Notes under the pieces: model-generated
Database searches by the model: none
What the model saw: only the letters and a program-made list of their open reading frames with translations
What the model was told of the DNA's origin: nothing
Source: a bacterium
GTDB taxonomy: Bacteria > Patescibacteriota > Minisyncoccia > Phycocordibacterales > UBA2100
Assembly: GCA_021781955.1 (NCBI GenBank)
Contig: JAJXVV010000002.1
Span: 10,730 to 74,729, forward strand
DNA length: 64,000 nt
Direction: 5' to 3'
In this document: in pieces, positions 2,742 through 64,000 of the stretch
Numbering within the stretch: position 1 is the first letter of the stretch
How the letters are laid out: the number at the start of each line of letters is the position of its first letter
Made by a program: the position numbers and the translations under genes

Positions 2742-5063
2742 ATGCCGCGACAAAAGAAGCCAGAGATAGCGCTCATCGTGAAGCGCGACGCCTCGCGCGT
2801 CCCGTTCGACAAGGCGAAGATCGCGGCAGCGGTCGGCAAAGCGATGCTTGCGGCCGACGAGTGGAGGCACGGCGCGCCGGAGCGCGTCGCCGAGGCCGTT
2901 GAGAAGGCGATCATCGAGAAAAAGACGGCGGATAAATCGTTCCTCCCGAGCGTCGAGGGAGTGCAGGATCTCGTCGAGCAGGAGCTCATGTTCCTCAAGT
3001 ATCCGGCATCGGCCAAGGCCTACATTCTCTACCGCGCGCAGCGCACGAAGCTGCGCCGCGAGCGCGGCGTGGTGCCGGAGCGCGTTCGCCAGCTCGCGGA
3101 GGAGAGCAAGGCATACTTCAAGGACAATCCGCTCGGCGAATTCGTCTACCTGCGCACCTACGCGCGGTGGATCGAGGAAGAGAATCGCCGCGAGACGTGG
3201 ATCGAGACGGTCGATCGGTACGTCAATTTCATGCGCGAGAATCTCGGCGACAAGCTACGCGAGGTTGAGTACGCTGAATTGCGCGAGGCGATCCTCAGAC
3301 AGGAGGTCATGCCCTCGATGCGCGCCATGCAGTTCTCCGGCGAGGCGGCGCGCAAGTGCAACACGTGCGTGTACAACTGCACCTTCACTGCGCCGGTGAA
3401 GCTCGAGGATTTCGCCGAGATCATGTACCTCTCGATGCAAGGTTGCGGCGTCGGTTTCGCGGTGGAGAGCCAGAACATCGAACAGCTGCCGCAGATCAAA
3501 AAGCAGACCAGATCGAAACTGCCGAAGCATGTCATCGGCGACTCGAAAGAAGGCTGGTGCGATGCGCTCACGCTCGGCCTCAAGACCTGGTACGCGGGCA
3601 AGGACATCGAGTTCGATTTCTCGCAGATCCGCCCGGCCGGCTCGCGGCTCAAGGTAATGGGCGGGAAGGCCTCCGGTCCGGAGCCGCTCCGCTCACTTCT
3701 CGCCTTCGCGCGCGAGCGCATCCTTGCCCGTCAGGGCCGCCGCTTGCGCGCGATCGACGCACACGACATCATTTGCAAAATAGGGGAGTGCGTCGTCGCT
3801 GGCGGCGTACGCCGCACTGCGATGATCTCGCTCTCCGATCTCGACGATACTGAGTTGCGTGACGCGAAGAAGGGACAGTTCTTCCTCACCGACCCGCATC
3901 GCATGGTGGCCAATAACTCCGCCGTGTACGATCATCAGCCGACCAACGTCGAACTCATGGAGGAATGGGTCGCGCTCATGAAGAGCGGTTCCGGCGAGCG
4001 CGGCATCTTCAACCGGGGCGCCTTGCACAACACGCTGCCTAAGCGCCGCCTCTCGTTCTTCAAGAAGCGCCACCTTACCGACGAGGATGGCGTCGTCACC
4101 GGTTCGGTCGGGACCAATCCGTGCGGCGAGATAATTTTGCAATCCAAGCAATTCTGCAATCTCTCCGAGGTGATCGCGCGCTCCGGCGATACGCGCGAGA
4201 AGCTCGTACAAAAAGCCAAGCTTGCCGCTATCCTCGGCACGTACCAGTCCACGCTCACCAATTTCCGCTACATCTCGAAGGAATGGACCAAGAACTGCCG
4301 CGACGAGGCGCTCCTGGGAGTCTCGATCACCGGCCAGTGGGATAGCGAAGAGGCGCGCAAACCGGAAACCATGCGCCTCATGCGCGACACGGCCGTCAAG
4401 ACCAACGCCGCCTACGCGAAACGCTTCGGCGTGAAGCCGTCGATGGCCGTCACTGCGGTCAAGCCCTCCGGAACCGTGTCGCAGACCTTCAACACCGCCT
4501 CCGGCATCCACCCGCGCCACTCCAAGTATTACATCCGCCGCGTGCGCATCTCGGCGACCGACGCCCTTTTCAAGATGGTGCGCGATCAGGGCATCCCGCA
4601 CTACCCGGAGGTAGGGCAGTCGGCCGAGAGCGCAACGACCTACGTGCTCGAGTTCCCCGTCATGGCGCCGGAAGGATCGAAGTTCAAGGAAGACCTTACC
4701 GCTCTCGAGCAGCTCGAGTACTGGAAGAGCGTGAAGTTGAACTTCACCGAACATAATCCGTCGGCGACGATCTCCGTCGGCGAGGATGAATGGATCGGCG
4801 TCGTCGATTGGCTCCAGAGGAATTGGGGCATCGTTGGAGGGCTCTCGTTCCTGCCGCGTTTTGACCACGTGTACCGCTTGGCGCCGTACGAGGCCATCGA
4901 CAAGAAACGCTACGACGAGCTTAAGGCGTCGTTCCCCGACATCGACTACTCGAAGCTCGTCATGTACGAGATCTCCGACGAGACCGAGCAGAAGCGCGAA
5001 CTCGCGTGCGCCGGCGGCGTCTGTGAGATAGAAGTGGTTCCAACGGAAACGACCACGGCGTAG
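2742..5063 (+). CDS. nrdJ: class II adenosylcobalamin-dependent ribonucleoside-triphosphate reductase
   Basis: 773 aa from ATG 2742; N-terminal ATP-cone (VKRDASRVPFDKAKI), active-site NPCGEI...C region, C-terminal CxxC tail (CAGGVCE). Confidence 0.85.
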   Translation: MPRQKKPEIALIVKRDASRVPFDKAKIAAAVGKAMLAADEWRHGAPERVAEAVEKAIIEKKTADKSFLPSVEGVQDLVEQELMFLKYPASAKAYILYRAQRTKLRRERGVVPERVRQLAEESKAYFKDNPLGEFVYLRTYARWIEEENRRETWIETVDRYVNFMRENLGDKLREVEYAELREAILRQEVMPSMRAMQFSGEAARKCNTCVYNCTFTAPVKLEDFAEIMYLSMQGCGVGFAVESQNIEQLPQIKKQTRSKLPKHVIGDSKEGWCDALTLGLKTWYAGKDIEFDFSQIRPAGSRLKVMGGKASGPEPLRSLLAFARERILARQGRRLRAIDAHDIICKIGECVVAGGVRRTAMISLSDLDDTELRDAKKGQFFLTDPHRMVANNSAVYDHQPTNVELMEEWVALMKSGSGERGIFNRGALHNTLPKRRLSFFKKRHLTDEDGVVTGSVGTNPCGEIILQSKQFCNLSEVIARSGDTREKLVQKAKLAAILGTYQSTLTNFRYISKEWTKNCRDEALLGVSITGQWDSEEARKPETMRLMRDTAVKTNAAYAKRFGVKPSMAVTAVKPSGTVSQTFNTASGIHPRHSKYYIRRVRISATDALFKMVRDQGIPHYPEVGQSAESATTYVLEFPVMAPEGSKFKEDLTALEQLEYWKSVKLNFTEHNPSATISVGEDEWIGVVDWLQRNWGIVGGLSFLPRFDHVYRLAPYEAIDKKRYDELKASFPDIDYSKLVMYEISDETEQKRELACAGGVCEIEVVPTETTTA

Positions 5064-5069
5064 CCGCTT

Positions 5070-5603
5070 ATGCTCTATACCCGAAAAGGCGATACCGGTA
5101 CCTCCGGCCTTTTCGGGACCAAAGATCGCCAGACGAAGGCGGCGCCCGTCTTCGAGGCGCTCGGCATGAGCGACGAACTCAACTCGTTCCTCGGATTCTG
5201 CCGCGCGTACGGGCTCAAAGAGAAATTCGAAGCGGCGCCGCTCGCGGCGCCGCTTTTACGCGAGGTACAGGAGCGCCTCTTCGTCGTGCAGGCAGAGCTC
5301 GCGGGTGCGGACAAGTCGCTCACGCAGGCAGATGTCGAGAAGCTCGAAGCGCACATCGCCGAACTCGAGGCGCAGATAGCGAATCCGCACTCGTTCATCG
5401 TGCCGGGCGCGACCGCTTTCTCCGGCATGCTCGACTACGCGCGCGCGATGTCGCGCCGGGTCGAACGCGCCATCATTCGGAGCGAAGTGTCGCTCTCCGC
5501 ACCGACCAAAGCCTATCTCAACCGCCTTTCGAGTTTCCTCTATGTGCTCGCGCGCGTTGCCGCAAAGGACGCCGGTGAAGATGAGCGAGCGCCGCAGTAT
5601 TGA
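5070..5603 (+). CDS. ATP:cob(I)alamin adenosyltransferase, PduO-type
   Basis: 177 aa; N-term MLYTRKGDTGTSGLFG matches PduO/MMAB 'YTKTGDxGxT' signature; 6 nt after nrdJ stop. Confidence 0.7.
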   Translation: MLYTRKGDTGTSGLFGTKDRQTKAAPVFEALGMSDELNSFLGFCRAYGLKEKFEAAPLAAPLLREVQERLFVVQAELAGADKSLTQADVEKLEAHIAELEAQIANPHSFIVPGATAFSGMLDYARAMSRRVERAIIRSEVSLSAPTKAYLNRLSSFLYVLARVAAKDAGEDERAPQY

Positions 5604-55895: not shown

Positions 55896-58433
55896 ATGGA
55901 TACTCTCTTTCTCCAAGCAATCCAAAAGCAGGTCGCACAGTGGCGCGACGGCGACTATAGAGGCATTGAGCATGAAACCCGCAACATTCTCTCGCACATA
56001 AAACGTGTCGCGTTTTTGCATCTGCCACAGATTGAAGCTCTGGAAACATACATTTACCTCAAAGAGGTCGTAGGCAACAAACCATCACTTGAGGTATTTC
56101 GGTCCTCATTCGATAGCGAGCTTGAGCTTATACGCGCACTCGGCGTATCGGATAAACTCGCACTTGAGCTTGTGTACGACAAAGAAAAGGACGCAAAAAT
56201 ACAGGCGGCTTTGGAGGAGAAGTTTGGGCGTCTCGATTACGCCAATCAAGTGTACGCACTTACCATGGGTTCAGGCAAAACCATCTTGATGGCTGTAATG
56301 ATGCTCTACGATTTCGTGCTCTCGTACTATCATCCGACGGACGTGCGGTTTGCAAAAAATGCTCTGGTATTTGCTCCCGATACGACCATCATAGAGAGTT
56401 TGAAGGAGATAAAATCGTTCGATTACGCGAAGGTGCTGCCGAAGGAATATGGCGTCGTGCTGCTGAATACCAAATACCACTACCTCGAAAGCACGAGTAC
56501 GCCGCTCCTGCCAATCGGCAACTATAATGTCATTGTCTCAAACTCCCAGAAAATCATCCTCAAGACACGAACCGAAAACCGAAACGGCACGAGTCGTCTT
56601 TTCGGCGATAAGAACGAGCTTGAGCGTCGCGAGGTTGAGAACAGCCGCTTACAGGCGATACGGCAACTATCGCAACTGATGATTTTCGTGGATGAAGCGC
56701 ATCACTCCTACGGCCAGACGCTCGAAGGAACGCTCAAGAAAACGCGACAGACGATTGATTACCTGCATCAGAATACGCCTCTCGTTGCTGTCGTAAATCT
56801 CACGGGTACGCCGTATGTAAATAACGAGATGATTGCTGATGTCGTCTACCACTTCGGTCTCAAGGCGGGTATCGAGCGCGGGATACTCAAGCAGGTTCGC
56901 ATCTTGGATTACGGCAACGTGCGCTCGCAAAAGTTCTTGGAGGAAGTGGTTGATACTTTCGTTGCGGAGTATGGGGAGTGGCGGCTCGAAGGGCGTTTGC
57001 CGAAAATGGCTTTTTACGCAGCGAACATCGCAGACCTGCGACAGGATTTGAAACCGAAGCTGGAGCGCATACTTGCCGAGAAAGGCATCCCACTCGATAC
57101 GGTTCTTGAGTACCATACAGATGCCGAAGAAAACGCCGATGAGTTTCGCAGCTTGGATACGGGCGAAAGCAAAAAGCAGTTCGTCCTGCTTGTCGGCAAG
57201 GGCACGGAAGGATGGAACTGCCGCTCACTCGTTGCAGTCGCACTATACAAAAAACCAAAAAGCACCATTCTCGTGCTTCAATCAACGACGCGCTGCTTGC
57301 GTTCTATAGGCGACAACTCGACGCGGGCGCACATCTTTCTCTCTACCGAGAACTACAAGATACTTGACCGCGAACTGAAAAATAACTTTGCCACGAGTGC
57401 AAGCGAGCTTTCTTCGCAGGACCAGAAAACGGTCGAGCATACTCTCAAGATAGAGAAGCGGAGAACCGTCAAGGTGAAAAAGACATTGAAAGATGTGCTG
57501 GCCGTTCAGAGCGCGGACATGGGCAGTATTCGTATTGATTTCAAGAAGTTCAAACCCGAACTTTACCGCGCGTATGTGAGCGAGGGCGGGATTTTTATCG
57601 GTGAGGAGGGACGAGCGGGGTATCAGGAGACGAAGGCCGTGCGCGGCATCCAAGAGGAAAACGACCTGACTTTTTACGAGATTGTTGGGGTCATAAATCG
57701 TCAAACGCACCTGCCCTGTATTGCTATCGAAAGCGTAATCGTTGGAAGCGGAAAAGAGCGAAACGTATTCGCGAAAGAGGTGAATAAAAATCCCGCGCTC
57801 GTTGCGTTTGCGATACAGGAAATACTCAAGAGCGCCTATCAGTACGAGGAGAGAACCGAGGTTATCGAGGAGGTGCTGGAGCTTACAAAACTGTACCCGT
57901 TCAAAATCAGCGTTCAGCAAAATAGGAACGCTCTTATTGTGTACCGCGAGACCGAGGAGCAGGAAGGCCATAAAGGGCGGCTCGGCTTCCACATCAATCC
58001 GTACAACTTTGATAGCGCAGACGAGAAAGAGTTGTTTCGCTATCTGCGCGGCGTACTCAACACGCGAGAGAGTATCAAAGAAATCTACTTTACGGGCGGC
58101 GCGACCGATACCACACATAACGATTTTTACTTCGAGTATTGGAGTCCCGAAAAACAACGCGTCGCCCGATACTTTCCCGATTTTCTCGTTGAGACGACGA
58201 AAGGCAGGTATTTGGTGGTTGAAACGAAAAGCCCTGCGGAGCGAGCCGACTACGAAGCCAACAAGCGTTCCTATAACGGCAAACTTGAACAGCTCACCAA
58301 TGAGGTGCTCGCAAAAGAGCTTGGCTTCCGTGCGTTCCAAGAAGCGAATAAGGATTTTGAGTATCGCATCACGTTCAACGCAGTACTCCAGCGGGAGCAG
58401 GTAGAGTTGTTTGAAGAGATTGAGCACCTATAA
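55896..58433 (+). CDS. res: Type III restriction enzyme Res subunit (SF2 helicase + endonuclease)
   Basis: Walker A MGSGKTILMA, DEAH-like MIFVDEAHHSYGQ, 845 aa, 6 nt after mod. Confidence 0.8.
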   Translation: MDTLFLQAIQKQVAQWRDGDYRGIEHETRNILSHIKRVAFLHLPQIEALETYIYLKEVVGNKPSLEVFRSSFDSELELIRALGVSDKLALELVYDKEKDAKIQAALEEKFGRLDYANQVYALTMGSGKTILMAVMMLYDFVLSYYHPTDVRFAKNALVFAPDTTIIESLKEIKSFDYAKVLPKEYGVVLLNTKYHYLESTSTPLLPIGNYNVIVSNSQKIILKTRTENRNGTSRLFGDKNELERREVENSRLQAIRQLSQLMIFVDEAHHSYGQTLEGTLKKTRQTIDYLHQNTPLVAVVNLTGTPYVNNEMIADVVYHFGLKAGIERGILKQVRILDYGNVRSQKFLEEVVDTFVAEYGEWRLEGRLPKMAFYAANIADLRQDLKPKLERILAEKGIPLDTVLEYHTDAEENADEFRSLDTGESKKQFVLLVGKGTEGWNCRSLVAVALYKKPKSTILVLQSTTRCLRSIGDNSTRAHIFLSTENYKILDRELKNNFATSASELSSQDQKTVEHTLKIEKRRTVKVKKTLKDVLAVQSADMGSIRIDFKKFKPELYRAYVSEGGIFIGEEGRAGYQETKAVRGIQEENDLTFYEIVGVINRQTHLPCIAIESVIVGSGKERNVFAKEVNKNPALVAFAIQEILKSAYQYEERTEVIEEVLELTKLYPFKISVQQNRNALIVYRETEEQEGHKGRLGFHINPYNFDSADEKELFRYLRGVLNTRESIKEIYFTGGATDTTHNDFYFEYWSPEKQRVARYFPDFLVETTKGRYLVVETKSPAERADYEANKRSYNGKLEQLTNEVLAKELGFRAFQEANKDFEYRITFNAVLQREQVELFEEIEHL

Positions 58434-58438
58434 CTCGC

Positions 58439-58561
58439 ATGGCCGACGAAAAAATAGATACGCCTTTGGATGAAAAAGATATAGCAGAGCTTGCAGAGAT
58501 TTTTGACCTGCTCGCGCAATGGGATGTCGAGGACAAACGCGATGAGCGAAATAAATCCTGA
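58439..58561 (+). CDS. small acidic ORF (40 aa)
   Basis: MADEKIDTPLDEKDIAELAEIFDLLAQWDVEDKRDERNKS; overlaps next ORF by 20 nt. Confidence 0.2.
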   Translation: MADEKIDTPLDEKDIAELAEIFDLLAQWDVEDKRDERNKS

Positions 58562-58742
58562 TATGCTCTCGATAGAGGATTTGCGAAAGACGCTCCTCGA
58601 CGAGGAAAGGTATAAGTACACCGATGAGGAGTTGAGGAAAATCAACACACTTCTCGATGCGCTCGCGGACGTGATTTTCGATAAATGGCTCGCCGAAAGA
58701 AACAGCAAGAAGGCCAAAAAAGAGGGAACGGTAAATCATTGA
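58542..58742 (+). CDS. small acidic helical ORF (66 aa), paralog-like to preceding ORF
   Basis: MSEINPDMLSIEDLRKTLLDEERYKYTDEELRKINTLLDALADVIFDKWLAERNSKK. Confidence 0.3.
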   Translation: MSEINPDMLSIEDLRKTLLDEERYKYTDEELRKINTLLDALADVIFDKWLAERNSKKAKKEGTVNH

Positions 58743-58924
58743 CACCACGCCCAAATGTAGTATAATGCTATGCGGTTCTTTGATATTCAACTTGCGTTTG
58801 CCACAGCAGAAAGCAGCTCATCTTTGGGCTTCTCCCTGCTATGGCAAACTCTCAAACACGAGAGCGCCCGCTGGCAGAGCAACACGTTCGCAAGAACACG
58901 TTGCACATACACGAGGAACACGTC

Positions 58925-59494
58925 ATGGCTGACACGTTCGTCATGTCTACCCGCCAAGCGGCGGAACTGGACTACGCCTTCGAGCGGAACGGTTGGACGC
59001 CCGCAGAGGTCAAGCAGCTTTCGAGCGGCGGACTTCTCGCGGACTTCCGCAAGGTTCTGCTCGGCCACGCGGTCATCTCGGTGCCCGAGCACTTGATTGA
59101 CCTCGACGCCGACCCGTTCGTTCCGAACGGCTGGAAGGTCGAGGAGCACCAGAAAGGCGGCCAGTTCAAATGGGACGCCACCAAGGTGAAGCTCCATCTC
59201 TCCAAGAAGCAGCAAGGCGGCAAAGTACTGGAAGGCAATAAGCTCCGCGAGGAACTGAAAGGCCAACCCGTCTACAATGCCAATCTGCTCGACTACCTGC
59301 TCAAGAACCCGCACCTCATTCCCGAGGAGTGGAAGAGCAAGTATGTCTTCTTCTGGGGGACGGTCTACCGCGGCTCGGACGGCGACCTCTGCGTTCGCTG
59401 CCTCTGCTGGAGCGGCGGCGGGTGGCGCTGGGGCTACGGCTGGCTCGGCAGCGACTGGTACGGGAACGACCCCGCTGCGGTGCCCGCAAGTTGA
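58925..59494 (+). CDS. DGR target protein (189 aa) with C-terminal variable region
   Basis: GAGGAA SD before ATG 58925; last ~41 codons are the VR. Confidence 0.7.
   Translation: MADTFVMSTRQAAELDYAFERNGWTPAEVKQLSSGGLLADFRKVLLGHAVISVPEHLIDLDADPFVPNGWKVEEHQKGGQFKWDATKVKLHLSKKQQGGKVLEGNKLREELKGQPVYNANLLDYLLKNPHLIPEEWKSKYVFFWGTVYRGSDGDLCVRCLCWSGGGWRWGYGWLGSDWYGNDPAAVPAS
59366..59489 (+). repeat. DGR variable region (VR)
   Basis: 124 bp, 103/124 identical to TR with no indels; all 21 differences at TR adenines. Confidence 0.85.
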
Positions 59495-59547
59495 ACTATG
59501 GACTTGGTGCCTTGGGTTTTGTTTGACCCTTTGCACCTTGCCCTTTG

Positions 59548-59589
59548 CCCCGCGTTGTCTGAAATATGACAGCGCGGGGTTTTGTTTTG
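59548..59589 (+). terminator. GC-rich hairpin + T-run 54 nt after VR (terminator and/or DGR target-recognition hairpin)
   Basis: CCCCGCGTTGTC-tgaaatat-GACAGCGCGGGG then TTTTGTTTTG. Confidence 0.5.
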
Positions 59590-59821
59590 ATACAATCCGA
59601 AGCGGAAGTAGGTGAATACGCGGGCGACCACGGTTTCCCGCTACCGAACCCAGTACCCATACATCGAGAGCATCTCCGATTACGGTTTGAGATGGAGTGG
59701 TGGATGGGGCACTACAAAAAGTGAAATAACTTGGTGTGGGGTGCTATGCGAGTTTCGCTCGCGGATACGATACAGCCCGAGACCTCCAATCGGGCAGTGG
59801 CACGGACGGCATCTCATACGC

Positions 59822-59945
59822 AACCGCAACTCGGACGGCGACCTCTACGTTCGCTACCTCTACTGGAACGGCGACAGGTGGAACTGGAACAACAACTGGC
59901 TCGACAACGACTGGAACGAGAACAACCCCGCTGCGGTGCCCGCAA
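59822..59945 (+). repeat. DGR template region (TR)
   Basis: A-rich (AAC codons in VR frame); see VR. Confidence 0.85.
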
Positions 59946-59966
59946 CTCGCCTCACTTCTCACCCCG

Positions 59967-60314
59967 CTACTTGGCGGGGTTGAGTTTTGTAAGCTGGCCG
60001 TTCCAGCCGCCGAGCATCTTGCCGACCTCTTCCACTCTCACAGAGAGCGCGGCATATTTTCTGTTGTCGAGCGATTTCGTTTCCCAGAGCACCATGAGGA
60101 GCACTTTCAGCGTGTCCGTCTTCCTGATTGCGAGCCGCACATACGGCCGCTTCTCGTCGCGTGCAAGAAAGCTGGCAGATGCTATCGTTTCCATGATTTC
60201 CACAAACAATGTATCAACGCGCTGTCCAAGTGAGTGTCTGTGAGCTTTCGGTAAGGCCTGATAGTAGCCGTACCACATCAAGTACGCGCTTTTTACTTTC
60301 TGTAGCAACGGCAA
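59967..60314 (-). CDS. avd: Avd-family accessory variability determinant (four-helix bundle / 23S-IVS protein family), opposite strand to TR and RT
   Basis: C-terminal EEVGKMLGGW aligns with Bordetella phage bAvd AEVGRILGSW as recalled from memory; annotated start is TTG at 60314, first ATG at 60278. Confidence 0.6.
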   Translation of the reverse strand: MPLLQKVKSAYLMWYGYYQALPKAHRHSLGQRVDTLFVEIMETIASASFLARDEKRPYVRLAIRKTDTLKVLLMVLWETKSLDNRKYAALSVRVEEVGKMLGGWNGQLTKLNPAK

Positions 60315-60321
60315 GAGCCGC

Positions 60322-60333
60322 GGGGGGGGGGGG
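60322..60333. repeat. G12 homopolymeric tract in divergent avd/RT intergenic region
   Basis: cgGGGGGGGGGGGGtgg read directly; 14 nt before RT ATG. Confidence 0.8.
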
Positions 60334-60346
60334 TGGCTTCAATGAT

Positions 60347-61360
60347 ATGGCCGTCCAAAAGTTCACTCATACATATCGGAGTATAGCTTCGCTTTCAAAC
60401 CTTCTCGAAGCATGGAAAGAGTTTGTGCGCGGCAAGCGGCATCGTGCGGACGTACAGGAGTTTGAGCTAAATCTGATGGGCAACGTCCTATCGCTACACA
60501 GCGACCTCACGGCAAAAACCTACAAGCACTCACCGTATGAGGCGTTCAACATTTCGGACCCGAAGCCACGCAACATCCACAAAGCCGCAGTGCGCGACCG
60601 TCTGCTCCACCACGCGCTCTACCGAAAGCTGTATCCGTTTTTCGATAAGACGTTCGTACCGCACTCGTATTCGTGTAGGAGAGGCAAGGGCGGCCATAAA
60701 GCACTCGACTGCTTCCGTAGATTTGCGTATCAGGTATCGCGCAACCACACACGCACGGTCTGGGTGCTGAAGTGCGACATCCGCAAGTTCTTTGCCTCGA
60801 TTGACCATGCGTGCCTTACCGCCATACTGCGGCGCTCTATCGAGGACGAGGATATTCTCTGGCTCTTGTCTCAAATCATCGAGAGTTTCTATTCGACCGA
60901 GAAAGGCGTCGGTCTGCCGCTCGGCAATCTCACCTCGCAACTTCTGGTGAACGTCTACATGAATGAGTTTGACCACTATGTAGCGCGACAACTCCGCATA
61001 CAGCACTACATCCGATACGCAGATGATTTCGTTTTCATGTCCGCCGACAAGCAAGGGCTGATAGAGCTTCTCCCGAGCATACGGGATTTTCTGTGGAACG
61101 AACTGCGGCTCACGCTGCATCCCGATAAGGTTTCTCTACGCACTGTCGCCTCGGGTGTGGATTTTCTCGGATGGGTGCATTTTCCAGACCATCGGGTGCT
61201 GCGTACAACGACGAAAAAGAGAATGTTCCGAGGCATCAGGGCGCAAGAGGGTAAAGAGGAAACGGTGCAGTCCTATTTCGGACTGATGAGCCACGGCAAT
61301 GCAAAGAAACTGCGGCGAGAGGTCGAAGATGAACTGGATGAAATGAAGAACGGCCTATAA
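60347..61360 (+). CDS. DGR reverse transcriptase
   Basis: YIRYADDFVF (YxDD) and LGNLTSQLLVNVYMNEF (DGR-RT-specific I/LGxxxSQ motif); 337 aa. Confidence 0.85.
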   Translation: MAVQKFTHTYRSIASLSNLLEAWKEFVRGKRHRADVQEFELNLMGNVLSLHSDLTAKTYKHSPYEAFNISDPKPRNIHKAAVRDRLLHHALYRKLYPFFDKTFVPHSYSCRRGKGGHKALDCFRRFAYQVSRNHTRTVWVLKCDIRKFFASIDHACLTAILRRSIEDEDILWLLSQIIESFYSTEKGVGLPLGNLTSQLLVNVYMNEFDHYVARQLRIQHYIRYADDFVFMSADKQGLIELLPSIRDFLWNELRLTLHPDKVSLRTVASGVDFLGWVHFPDHRVLRTTTKKRMFRGIRAQEGKEETVQSYFGLMSHGNAKKLRREVEDELDEMKNGL

Positions 61361-61480
61361 AAGCTGTTTTTCCACACCCTCATTGCACGTTCATCCTCCG
61401 TAGCTTATACTTTGCCTGTGCTTGTGGGGCGTCAGCCCTATTCGGCTACATCGTAAGCCGAAGGCGAGCACATCAAAGAG

Positions 61481-61505
61481 CGCCACCGAAGGGTGGTGTT
61501 TTTTG
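61481..61505. terminator. intrinsic terminator after RT (bidirectional with 61510..61989)
   Basis: CGCCACC-gaag-GGTGGTG + TTTTTTG. Confidence 0.55.
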
Positions 61506-61509
61506 TTGG

Positions 61510-61989
61510 CTAATCCTCATCGGGATTGCCTTTCATCGTGCTGATGAGCTTCATGTCGCGGTATTTGTTCGTAATCCAAGCGGGCACGATGCTCCAAAAG
61601 TGGAGCTGGCCGTTGTCGCCGATTTTCCGCACGATAACTTTTATCTTGCGCCCATCAATGATGGCGATGATGCCCCAGTATTTTACGGGCTTGCTTTTGC
61701 GGACGGGCTTCTTGTGGCTTTTCATCTCAAACTCCTTGAGCGTCTCCTCGTACTCTTGGTAGGTCGTCGAACGCTCCACGAGCTTCACAGCCCGCGATAG
61801 GAGCTTGAAGCGGAGTATCTGCGACGGGCGCTCGCGTTCGCTGCGCGAACCCTTGAATACAATGTGATTGAAGCCCTCGGCGGTGAAGTGGACGTAATCG
61901 TTCAGCGCGGGCGAGAACACGGGACCGATGCTGTGGTAGAACTTTTGCGCGTCGGCGCGGAGCTTTTCGTAGTTGGATACGTCTTCCAT
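61510..61989 (-). CDS. hypothetical protein (159 aa)
   Basis: clean ORF convergent with RT; no recognised motif. Confidence 0.35.
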   Translation of the reverse strand: MEDVSNYEKLRADAQKFYHSIGPVFSPALNDYVHFTAEGFNHIVFKGSRSERERPSQILRFKLLSRAVKLVERSTTYQEYEETLKEFEMKSHKKPVRKSKPVKYWGIIAIIDGRKIKVIVRKIGDNGQLHFWSIVPAWITNKYRDMKLISTMKGNPDED

Positions 61990-62080
61990 TGCGAGCAGTT
62001 TACACCGCCGCCATCAAATCTGGTATAGCGATTTTGTACCTGAAATCCGATTTTCCACCCAAAAGTACGGTTCTAACTTC

Positions 62081-62193
62081 GTCCAAGTCCCGCAGCAGTC
62101 TAGTTTAGTATCGATGGACCAAGAGTCGTCTCATATTTTGAGCCGTGTTTTTTGGATGCCCGATTTTAGTCCAAGAGGGGTCAAAAGTGCGAC
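62081..62193 (+). repeat. attR core (17 bp identical to tRNA-Gln 3' end) plus ~95-bp adjacent repeat unit, copy A
   Basis: GTCCAAGTCCCGCAGCAgtctagtttagtatcgatggaccaagag... Confidence 0.65.
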
Positions 62194-62265
62194 TCCAGGT
62201 TTTGAGCCATAAAAGTGGTTCGAGTCTTAGAAAGGTCATTTTGTGTGCAGTGGTATGATTCCGGC

Positions 62266-62964
62266 ATGCAACTAAAGGTTCCCTCTTGGAATATTTGGAT
62301 AGACGGACATTTTGATAGCATCAAAGATTTTCTTCGGGATGCGGATGCCGACATCATCGGGCTTCAAGAGGTGAAAGACGATGACCCGGAGCGTGACGTC
62401 ATCGGGTACCTTACCGAATTAGGCTACCAGCACGTCTTCACGCCCGTAGCAAAGAAATGGAAGGATAAGGTATATAGAGACGGGTGTGCAGTGTTTAGTA
62501 AGCACGAGATTGTCTCCTCCATGGTGCACAAACTATCCGAAAAAGACAGCAGATACGCGCAGCAGGCCGACGTAAAGATAAATGGTTCGATCCTGCACGT
62601 GTTTAGCACTCACCTCATCCACACTCACCAAAAGCCCTCCGAGGTTCAAGAACTCCAGGCAGAAACGCTGGTGGGTATTCTGCCTACAGAGCGAACCATC
62701 GTCATGGGTGATTTCAATGCCACGCCTGATAGCGCCACCATACAAAAGATGAAACGAGACATGTTCTACGATACTGATTCCGCATCCATGCCAACATGGA
62801 GCGTCTACCCGGAGGGGTGCCACATCTGCAACCCTCAAGCAATTGATATAAAACTCGATTACATCTTCGCAAGCAAGGACTTAAAAACAGCCTCGTTCAA
62901 AGTCGAAGAATCGAAAGGTTCGGATCACTTGCCGATCGCGGTTCTCGTGGAGAGAGGGTTATAG
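62266..62964 (+). CDS. endonuclease/exonuclease/phosphatase family protein (second EEP paralog)
   Basis: WNIWIDGH...IIGLQEV and C-terminal GSDHLPI. Confidence 0.7.
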   Translation: MQLKVPSWNIWIDGHFDSIKDFLRDADADIIGLQEVKDDDPERDVIGYLTELGYQHVFTPVAKKWKDKVYRDGCAVFSKHEIVSSMVHKLSEKDSRYAQQADVKINGSILHVFSTHLIHTHQKPSEVQELQAETLVGILPTERTIVMGDFNATPDSATIQKMKRDMFYDTDSASMPTWSVYPEGCHICNPQAIDIKLDYIFASKDLKTASFKVEESKGSDHLPIAVLVERGL

Positions 62965-62990
62965 TTGTAAGACGTAAGAGATAACCTGGT

Positions 62991-63518
62991 ATGAAACTTG
63001 TTTTGCCGTCGGTCGAGTATAAAGTTTCGTTTATTGAAGCAGTGAAAGAATTGCAGAGCGAGACTACCACGATGACCACGCGCAGGTATCGTGAACTTTC
63101 AATCCCCGAACTCGAAGCTGATTTTGAATCGTTCGCGGAAAAAGAGCGCAGTCACGCACGAGGGAAGAATCAGCCCGAGGGCTATGTGCCTCAGTCGGAA
63201 TTCTGGTTCGTCGACGGCGGTGAGTATATCGGGCATGTCGGTATTCGCCATGAACTCAACGAACACCTCAAGACAATCGGTGGACATATCGGTTATAGCA
63301 TTCGTCCTAGCAAGCGCGGTAAAGGATACGGCAATAAAATTCTAGAATTCGCGCTCCCCAAAGCAAAAGAACTTGGAATCAATTGCGTGCTTCTCACATG
63401 CGATGCAACGAACGTTGCCTCGCGCAAAGTCATAGAAAAAAATGGAGGCGTTCTCGAAAATCAGGTGCCGAACCCGCAAACAGGAATCGATAAGCTACGT
63501 TTTTGGATTGATATTTGA
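62991..63518 (+). CDS. GNAT family N-acetyltransferase
   Basis: acetyl-CoA motif A RPSKRGKGYGNKILEFAL and motif B region. Confidence 0.75.
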   Translation: MKLVLPSVEYKVSFIEAVKELQSETTTMTTRRYRELSIPELEADFESFAEKERSHARGKNQPEGYVPQSEFWFVDGGEYIGHVGIRHELNEHLKTIGGHIGYSIRPSKRGKGYGNKILEFALPKAKELGINCVLLTCDATNVASRKVIEKNGGVLENQVPNPQTGIDKLRFWIDI

Positions 63519-63591
63519 CCCCTCTCAGACTCGAACCGAAAATCTGAAACCGAAGCCTAGGTTTTAAAGCACGAAATCGGCATTGGTGAAG

Positions 63592-63708
63592 GTCCAAGAG
63601 CAGCAGCAGTCTAGTTTAGTATCGATAGACCAAGACCTGTCTCTATGGTTAGAGCCGTGTTTTTGATATGACCTCGATATCGTCCAAGACGGGTCAAAAA
63701 TGTGTCGA
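63592..63708 (+). repeat. degenerate second copy (copy B) of the att-containing repeat unit
   Basis: GTCCAAGagcagcagcaGTCTAGTTTAGTATCGATaGACCAAGA...; ~80% identical to copy A by eye, core 13/17. Confidence 0.55.
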
Positions 63709-63770
63709 CGGACACCACGTTTAACGTCTACGGTACCCCTGCCCAATTCTGTCGCTTCGGTGCACATTTT

Positions 63771-63803
63771 TGAGGTCTCCCGGCTCGGCTCGGGAGACCT
63801 TTG
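63771..63803 (+). terminator. perfect 10-bp stem-loop followed by T-rich run
   Basis: AGGTCTCCCG-gctcggct-CGGGAGACCT ttgatttt. Confidence 0.4.
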
Positions 63804-64000
63804 ATTTTCGAAGAACAGAAGTGGGTGGGAACATCTCACCACGCGACCATCACAAGGCCGCTTTCAATTCGAGAAAATCCCCCGCACAGAGCGGGAAGCA
63901 AAGGTGGGCGAGCGGACTTAATTTTAGGTGCGCCCGGATCACCTTGAACTTCGGGCATAAAATGGGAGCCCGCGCCGATACTCTGGCGCGGGCTTCAAAG

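Follow-up and report, generated by a model that had tools for sequence, protein, structure and literature searches.

What is a run of twelve G's doing at the junction of the two divergent protein genes of a diversity-generating retroelement (DGR)? The question is raised by a stretch of 64,000 nucleotides from a bacterium of the Patescibacteria, the group that also goes by the name of Candidate Phyla Radiation (CPR); "the window" below means this whole stretch. It carries a complete DGR, comprising a target gene that ends in a variable repeat (VR), a template repeat (TR), the gene avd, and a gene encoding a reverse transcriptase (RT). The run lies at 60322-60333, at the junction of avd and RT, exactly where a first-pass annotation of the window had put it, and it is the sole homopolymer of at least 8 nucleotides in the 64 kb (the next-longest runs of G or C are 7). 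It is one copy of a hypermutable repeat, conserved in a large clade of CPR DGRs, that appears to lie within the 5' codons of avd and would probably act, through slipped strands, as a phase-variation switch of Avd. The parts of the junction are as follows (ORF, open reading frame):

59967 to 60314, minus strand: ORF of the Avd domain, 115 codons counted from TTG 60314, matching Pfam bAvd and NCBIfam DivGenRetAVD

60315 to 60370, minus strand: putative 5' extension of avd, from an ATG at 60370-60368 (antisense of CAT, the codon of RT His8) through the tract

60322 to 60333, no strand assigned: the G12 tract (C12 on the avd strand), a hypermutable simple-sequence repeat

60347 to 61360, plus strand: RT of the DGR, 337 amino acids, matching RVT_1, with LGNLTSQ and YADD in the translation

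60380 to 60408, minus strand: promoter-like site for avd, TCGAGA-17-TATACT, inside RT codons 12-21

The case for the repeat begins with its conservation. Related loci came from an RT-based scan of one genome per species, which yielded 579 relatives, and from a scan of metagenomes, which yielded 80 further loci; the 141 loci evaluated are those with at least 200 nucleotides upstream of RT (individual loci bear L numbers). At the junction, 124 of the 141 have a poly-G tract of 6 to 14 nucleotides, most often 9 or 10 (7 loci have 6 G's, 7 have 7, 19 have 8, 31 have 9, 35 have 10, 18 have 11, 2 have 12, 4 have 13, and 1 has 14). Twelve of the remaining 17 loci carry a different repeat in the same place and five carry none, so that some repeat is found in 136 of 141. 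The substitutes are (GT)n in three loci, (CTGG)n in two, and, in one locus each, (ATTG)7, (TGATTGC)11, (TGGCGGC)6, (TC)17, (AG)9, a GCG triplet, and T8. Their units are not multiples of three, save for the 10-nucleotide GCG triplet of L046, and those that were translated by hand contain no stop codon when read on the avd strand. The repeat is bordered on both sides by conserved sequence, and the loci come from many independent projects and assemblers. Elsewhere such tracts are rare: runs of G or C of at least 7 number 10 in the 813 kb outside the junction and more than 110 at the junction, an enrichment of more than 1000-fold.

Since the poly-G can be replaced by repeats unrelated to it, what is conserved would seem to be repetitiveness, that is to say, mutability. 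On the face of these sequences, the pattern points to selection for mutability and not for a particular sequence, and the several exchanges of one repeat type for another (poly-G or units of 2, 4, or 7 nucleotides) suggest the same, that mutability is itself selected. A G-quadruplex or a specific motif for binding RNA or protein was considered and rejected on the same grounds, the replacement of poly-G by unrelated repeats. The feature has its limits. Phage-type DGRs (RT identity of 36% or less) show no repeat upstream of RT, and of three more distant loci with the same gene arrangement (Architecture B3, described below), one has G11 and two have no repeat. A search of metagenome contigs with a pattern made from the exact flanks of the window's own junction found nothing. 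In L011, two more G10 runs were seen, at 3404 (1.05 kb downstream from where RT starts) and at 5253 (2.9 kb downstream), and these may mark other phase-variable genes near the DGR.

Whether the repeat lies within avd turns on where translation of avd begins. The first-pass annotation had placed the tract between the start of avd and the ATG of RT, which holds for the annotated starts (TTG 60314 or ATG 60278). Comparison with the relatives puts the start on the other side of the tract. The codon at residue 1 of avd, as counted from TTG 60314, specifies Leu in 93 of 107 loci, with all six Leu codons in use, and is capable of starting translation (ATG, GTG, or TTG) in only 49. The codon before it (-1) specifies Leu, Ile, or Val in 93 loci, and the one before that (-2) Arg or Lys in 57, through seven different codons. 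Codons further upstream derive from the tract and encode Pro. In 20 loci, no ATG, GTG, or TTG is to be found between the tract and residue 12 of avd. These codon patterns, together with the 20 loci lacking a start, argue that translation would have to enter upstream of the tract, and that TTG 60314 would be an internal codon in this family.

The loci without a repeat are informative as to the position of the start. In all six of them (L007, L035, L111, L114, L162, and L164), avd is in frame with an upstream ATG, and in three (L007, L162, and L164) that ATG is antisense to RT His8, 24 nucleotides inside RT. In L162, it stands only 4 codons ahead of the conserved Leu-Pro. The synonymous codons of RT are constrained at particular positions:

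RT His8: CAT in 88 loci against 1 (baseline, 57% CAT)

RT codon 12: GAT or CAT (NAT) in 66 against 0 (baseline, 57-59% T-ending)

RT Ile13: ATC in 94 against 12 (baseline, 62% ATT, the opposite preference)

RT Phe6: 44 against 39, unconstrained

RT Tyr10: 52 against 48, unconstrained

A bias toward AT-rich 5' codons was considered as the cause of the preference for CAT at His8 and rejected, as Phe6 and Tyr10 are free and Ile13 prefers ATC. Read on the avd strand, the bases under constraint are an ATG's A and, in a TGnTAnnnT element, A(-11) and G(-14). This element, followed by 7 nucleotides and ATG, is found in 98 of 131 loci (with the TG in 83), and its spacing is the geometry of a leaderless transcript. 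The codon patterns, the repeat-less loci, and the synonymous constraints in RT together place the start of avd most likely at the ATG that is antisense to RT His8, which in the window is 60370. The two genes would then be divergent with overlapping 5' ends, head to head over 24 nucleotides of RT, with the tract about 13 codons into avd, and avd would have an extended -10 promoter within RT codons 11-14 and a transcript whose leader is very short or absent. In the window, the -10 hexamer TATACT (60385-60380) stands 9 nucleotides before ATG 60370.

What, then, does the length of the tract do to Avd? With G12, as in the window, reading from ATG 60370 gives a product of 25 residues that ends at 60293, out of frame with the Avd domain. 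G11 gives an out-of-frame product of 51 residues from the same ATG, and is in frame with the weaker starts GTG 60366 and TTG 60342. G10 or G13 gives an Avd of 133 or 134 amino acids, MSELLDGHIIEATPPP(P)RLLPLLQKVK... In general, only tract lengths of n = 1 mod 3 (10, 13, and so forth) join ATG 60370 to the Avd domain in the window. The Avd domain ORF itself is intact in all of the relatives.

Tract length does vary, as may be seen by comparing near-identical loci as assembled. The junction tract differs in six of nine such pairs, by 1, 2, or 3 nucleotides in five and by a substitution in one:

Window and L081 (the Logan assembly of SRR17201898), 4114 nucleotides aligned: G12 against G11, no other difference

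L039 and L107, 6005 nucleotides aligned: one substitution within the tract, no other difference

L119 and L122, 4119 nucleotides aligned: G10 against G11, one other difference

L008 and L091, 2180 nucleotides aligned: G11 against G10, one other difference

L034 and L103, 2042 nucleotides aligned: G11 against G8, one other difference

L095 and L096, 3150 nucleotides aligned: G10 against G8, 15 differences in the VR and 2 elsewhere

The remaining three pairs have tracts of equal length. The near-identical pairs hold no further indels apart from two gaps of a single base in L068/L132, at the edge of the VR toward the contig end. Less closely related, at 87% identity, L012 and L112 are one CTGG unit apart. 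Instability in these elements is thus seen at two spots, the tract and the VR, and toggling between ON and OFF frames is seen within near-identical pairs. The VR differences between L095 and L096 (coordinates 823-951 of the L095 locus) are direct evidence of recent DGR activity; the G10 of this pair is in frame and the G8 is not.

These pieces can be assembled into a mechanism. Slipped-strand mispairing during replication would alter the length of the tract. Avd is required for synthesis of cDNA in the model DGR, so alleles with an out-of-frame tract, such as the window's G12 and the G11 of the second assembly, should silence mutagenic retrohoming. In-frame revertants would re-activate it in a sub-population, and the result would be phase variation of a targeted mutator. 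In many relatives, the tract also abuts a -10-like hexamer before the ATG of RT, so that it may tune transcription of RT as well. Taken more broadly, the notion that a major clade of CPR DGRs has a built-in contingency switch, in which a hypermutable repeat in the 5' coding region of avd, abutting the RT promoter, switches targeted hypermutation at random between on and off, is one toward which the balance tips, if only slightly. If this is so, most cells would keep a fixed target protein while a minority diversify, a second-order control of a mutator that is both heritable and reversible.

Several observations weigh against an avd switch of this kind. The dependence on Avd is known, to our knowledge, only from the Bordetella phage DGR. 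In the assemblies, avd is not preferentially in frame with an upstream ATG: among 115 loci, the real avd frame is joined to one in 41 (36%), the other two frames are so joined in 59 (51%) and 45 (39%), and the His8 ATG is in frame in just 25 of 95 loci (26%). This would fit a switch that flips freely or is mostly OFF, and it would fit an untranslated tract equally well. (An apparent in-frame preference at the non-homopolymer loci, 6 of 7, was dropped when a three-frame control gave 7, 6, and 5 of 11 loci.) The window's promoter for avd is looser than the family consensus, with 9 instead of 7 nucleotides from -10 to ATG and no TG dinucleotide. The NCBIfam Avd profile (positions 1-102) begins at residue 1 of the window's ORF, TTG is the commonest codon at that residue, and translation may yet initiate downstream of the tract. 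Transcriptional slippage or frameshifting by tRNA-Pro on the C run could make OFF alleles leaky. Differences of 1 nucleotide in a homopolymer could be consensus errors of the assemblies. Finally, 20 of the 115 poly-G relatives (L118, L120, L151, L056, L070, L161, and others) have no ATG, GTG, or TTG in the RT frame from the tract to His8, so the tract might sit in both ORFs. In some, L118 and L125 among them, the RT frame stays open through the tract as far back as an upstream ATG, and there the repeat may indeed lie in both of the divergent ORFs. Over the relatives as a group, the RT frame is not preferentially open through the tract (46 loci, compared to 29 and 40 for the other frames).

The first-pass annotation had supposed that a change in tract length would alter the spacing of promoters for both genes, with possible ON/OFF switching of mutagenesis. 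The idea of a slipped-strand switch has fared well, in light of the tract's conserved position, its variable length, and the substitute repeats; the likeliest mechanism has become a frameshift in avd, with spacing still possible for RT. As an explanation of its own, a non-coding tract that sits in the RT promoter's spacer, upstream of avd, or both, its length setting the distance from -35 to -10 and so the transcription of one or both genes, seems unlikely. Yet there is much that it would account for. On the plus strand, the tract is followed by T (70%), A (45%), any three nucleotides, and T (64%), with TAnnnT at position +1 in 48 of 115 loci, and the modal distance of 13 nucleotides from the end of the tract to the ATG of RT equals a hexamer, 7 nucleotides, and the ATG, the geometry of a leaderless promoter. 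TAnnnT followed by 5 to 9 nucleotides and ATG is found in 41 of 100 loci, as compared to 9% of shuffled sequences. A -35-like CTGGCA or CTGGTA lies 8 nucleotides before the tract, so that the modal G9-10 yields, by hand arithmetic, a spacer of 17 to 18 nucleotides. There is a parallel in hifA/hifB of Haemophilus influenzae, where (TA)n within overlapping divergent promoters sets the spacing between -35 and -10. There too, one repeat between divergent genes could control both, whereas here the main effect would be a translational frameshift in one gene. What the spacing of a promoter cannot accommodate are the arrays of 28 to 78 nucleotides (L012, L026, L036, L037, L076, and L141), which could hardly serve as a 17-nucleotide spacer. 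In the window, moreover, the hexamer after the tract is poor (TGGCTT), and no plus-strand promoter was found there. The amino acid conservation of avd codons -2 to 1 and the in-frame ATGs of the repeat-less loci would be left without explanation. Control of RT through spacing is in any event compatible with a frameshift in avd; the two do not exclude one another.

Perhaps, instead, the length of the DNA tract is of no consequence, and the C run in avd mRNA is a site of programmed recoding, through transcriptional slippage or a +1 or -1 frameshift by tRNA-Pro, that yields a fixed, low amount of full-length Avd whatever the DNA says. The frame is random across assemblies, as this would predict, and long homopolymers and CCC-C sites are slippery. 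It is nonetheless quite improbable. Dinucleotide, tetranucleotide, and heptanucleotide repeats, the classic switches at the level of DNA, replace the homopolymer in at least 10 loci, and we know of no case in which such repeats act as slippage or shift sites. The length of the DNA tract differs, besides, between near-identical genomes. In the model system, Avd must exceed RT in amount, with one pentamer to each RT, which would make a built-in attenuation of it odd. Least probable of all, to the point where we give it very little credence, is that the tract has no function, being either an artefact of sequencing or assembly or a neutral by-product in a short intergenic gap, with avd beginning at TTG 60314. 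Poly-G is a problem for some Illumina chemistries, two assemblies of one sequence disagree by one G, and TTG is, as noted, the commonest codon at residue 1. An artefact, which the first-pass annotation had allowed for and which we reject, would not be expected to recur at the same position in 136 of 141 loci, drawn from many projects and assemblers, with conserved sequence to either side of it, nor to be exchanged at that site for repeats that are not homopolymers. The enrichment over flanking DNA counts against a lack of function as well, and differences of 2 and 3 nucleotides between near-identical loci are not consensus noise.

Turning to the DGR as a whole, its arrangement had been called non-canonical in the first-pass annotation. 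It is true that TR and RT are co-directional and that avd lies antisense in the spacer between them: 401 nucleotides separate the end of TR from the ATG of RT, and 348 of these are antisense avd. This is unusual, however, only by comparison to the DGR of Bordetella phage BPP-1. All 141 loci have avd on the strand opposite RT, the two genes diverging at a distance of no more than 150 nucleotides. The comparison with other CPR DGRs that had been recommended thus gives the same orientation throughout, matching a published arrangement, Architecture B3, whose core order is TR-(avd)-RT with a reverse-strand avd and which accounts for 90% of CPR DGRs (Wu et al. 2018, Nucleic Acids Res 46:11, PMC5758913). 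As passages of that paper describe it, Architecture B3 has the same order and orientation of target/VR, TR, reverse-strand avd, and RT as the window, in the same host group. The layout of the window's DGR is the ordinary, already described CPR arrangement. The best 80 of the 579 RT relatives are almost all from Patescibacteria/CPR, the closest of them being L001, a metagenome-assembled genome of Paceibacterota, at 91% identity. In 100 of 109 evaluable relatives, TR is on the RT strand, with at least 80% of TR/VR mismatches at A. In nearly all of these 100 TR-confirmed loci, the distance from the end of TR to the stop codon of avd is at most about 30 nucleotides (the modal gap is 6).

The identity of the parts is reasonably secure. 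Alignment of TR and VR over 123 nucleotides gives 20 mismatches, all 20 at adenines of TR (17 A to G, 2 A to T, and 1 A to C). The minus-strand ORF at 59967-60314 matches Pfam bAvd (PF22296) with 42.3 bits, where the cut-off is 40, which confirms that avd is on the minus strand; its match to NCBIfam DivGenRetAVD has 61.6 bits (E = 7e-17), under that model's cut-off of 80. The RT ORF matches RVT_1 with an E-value of 1e-21. The profile libraries searched, Pfam and NCBIfam, hold no model specific for DGR RTs, and we take LGNLTSQ in the window's RT to be an instance of the (I/L/V)GxxxSQ motif of DGR-type RTs. Upstream and downstream of the junction, the remaining parts are these:

58739 to 58766, plus strand: sigma-70-type promoter TTGACA-16-TATAAT, 12 of 12 positions (a match to consensus only), 5' of the target gene

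58841 to 59494, plus strand: target gene of the DGR, an ORF of 217 amino acids, with the VR in frame at the C-terminus

59367 to 59489, plus strand: VR, 84% identical to TR

59547 to 59580, plus strand: hairpin of 13 bp with TTTGTTTTGA after it, serving the target gene as terminator

59588 to 59596, plus strand: extended -10 element TGATACAAT of the putative DGR RNA gene, a motif conserved in relatives

59603 to 59822, plus strand: structured 5' leader of the DGR RNA, from covariation (its start coordinate is placed by the promoter)

59823 to 59945, plus strand: TR, 456 nucleotides downstream of the VR

59961 to 59990, plus strand: hairpin like that of an intrinsic terminator, ACCCCGC-TACT-TGGCGGGGT with the tail TGAGTTTTGT, 16 nucleotides past TR and inside the final codons of avd

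61484 to 61508, plus strand: terminator-like hairpin with a T run, 3' of RT

The first-pass annotation reasoned that a transcript of TR that reached RT would carry antisense avd RNA. That prospect is unlikely and probably moot, owing to the terminator that follows TR. A perfect GC-rich hairpin of at least 6 bp, 5 to 20 nucleotides past the end of TR on the plus strand and with a T-rich tail, is found in 84 of 100 relatives, as compared to 3 of 100 in a control region inside avd. The sequences of its stem vary between loci while pairing is maintained, and the commonest tail in the relatives is TTTTGTTTTG. The hairpin in the window (59961-59980) has a predicted energy of -20 kcal/mol (z of -2.6). 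Its U-tract, TGAGTTTTGT, falls short of the family consensus in strength, which leaves room for some read-through. Antisense transcription would probably be limited to the final 20 to 40 nucleotides of avd, unless the terminator leaks. In the other direction, a scan of the window found no minus-strand terminator after avd, so transcripts of avd may run antisense through TR.

At its other end, the RNA probably has a promoter of its own. A TGnTAnnnT element lies 220 to 280 nucleotides before TR, just past the terminator of the target gene, in 66 of 100 relatives. Between it and TR is a conserved leader of 220 nucleotides, in which 45 of 53 predicted pairs show compensatory double changes in an alignment of 49 sequences. 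The loop motif GAYYACGGYU recurs in two of its hairpins, at about 59624-59645 and 59679-59700, and its long-range helix closes immediately 5' of TR. Rfam, searched with E-values up to 1 over 57000-64000, gave nothing relevant, so the leader and TR region do not belong to a described RNA family. With a promoter of its own, a covarying leader, and a terminator past TR, the template RNA appears to be a discrete gene of about 390 nucleotides (approximately 59603-59990) that ends before avd, and the leader may be a protein-binding domain of B3-type DGR RNA. The target protein, for its part, has no match in Pfam or NCBIfam.

It is instructive to compare this element with that of BPP-1 (mtd-avd-TR-brt). 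The two are alike in the adenine-specific transfer from TR to VR, in the use of RT and Avd, in the GC-rich 3' end of TR, and in the hairpin after the VR of the target gene. In BPP-1, however, all genes are on one strand, whereas in the window avd is on the opposite strand and bears the repeat. Handa et al. are said to have found in 2018 that the BPP-1 DGR RNA requires a spacer of about 140 nucleotides downstream of TR; in the window, the RNA 3' of TR consists of the terminator hairpin only, and the conserved structured part is 5' of TR. We know of no B3-type DGR that serves as an experimental model.

How new is all this? The DGR and Architecture B3 are already known, and the junction repeat in avd is apparently the new part. 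The searched passages of PMC5758913 contain no junction repeat, head-to-head overlap of avd and RT, terminator past TR, or structured leader, and the word "promoter" is absent from the paper. A search of the literature for DGRs or avd in conjunction with phase variation, homopolymers, simple repeats, frameshifts, or slippage turned up no relevant paper, and an earlier mention in the literature on CPR DGRs is possible. The nearest kin of the proposed switch are the contingency loci that rest on simple sequence repeats, for example poly-G within the ORFs of Neisseria hmbR/hpuA and in Campylobacter, and the tetranucleotides of Haemophilus lic and mod, as described in passages of PMC3786947, PMC8355987, and PMC5084427. 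By those passages, the likeness lies in a run of G or C of at least 8, or a unit that is not a multiple of three, near the 5' end of an ORF (a probable position in the case of avd), in lengths that vary among close relatives, and in scattered frames. Those loci switch surface antigens or restriction-modification enzymes, whereas here it would be a component of a mutagenesis machine, in an uncultured CPR host, with switching inferred from assemblies. Homopolymer switches in the mismatch-repair genes MSH6/MSH3 in tumours (from passages of PMC11250277) are alike in that a mutable homopolymer stands in a gene that governs the rate of mutation, a second-order control of mutability. In that account, they are eukaryotic, affect a genome-wide rate, and are not a conserved, designed feature, whereas the window's DGR limits its mutagenesis to a single target gene.

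Among natural diversifiers of proteins, DGRs are the most powerful, and they abound in the small genomes of CPR bacteria. How might their activity be restrained? A slipped-strand switch conserved in avd would, if real, answer this simply, and it would bear on the apparent inactivity that some CPR DGRs might show in one sample or another. It would have a consequence for annotation as well, in that routine calls of avd take a downstream start or treat the gene as frameshifted. Those who engineer DGR systems could borrow a tunable stochastic switch. The list of parts given above amounts to a first operational map of a B3-type DGR, with a discrete RNA that runs from promoter to terminator and has a covarying 5' domain, and with avd and RT head to head, overlapping, and probably leaderless.

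A few observations concern the surroundings. The perfect TTGACA-16-TATAAT before the target gene suggests that the standard sigma-70 consensus is in use in this CPR genome. Upstream of the target gene is an ORF of 845 amino acids (55896-58433, plus strand), and on the other side of the DGR an ORF of 159 amino acids (61510-61989, minus strand), which has no match in Pfam, converges on the terminator of RT. The G+C content of the window is 58%, which seems high for a Patescibacteria genome.

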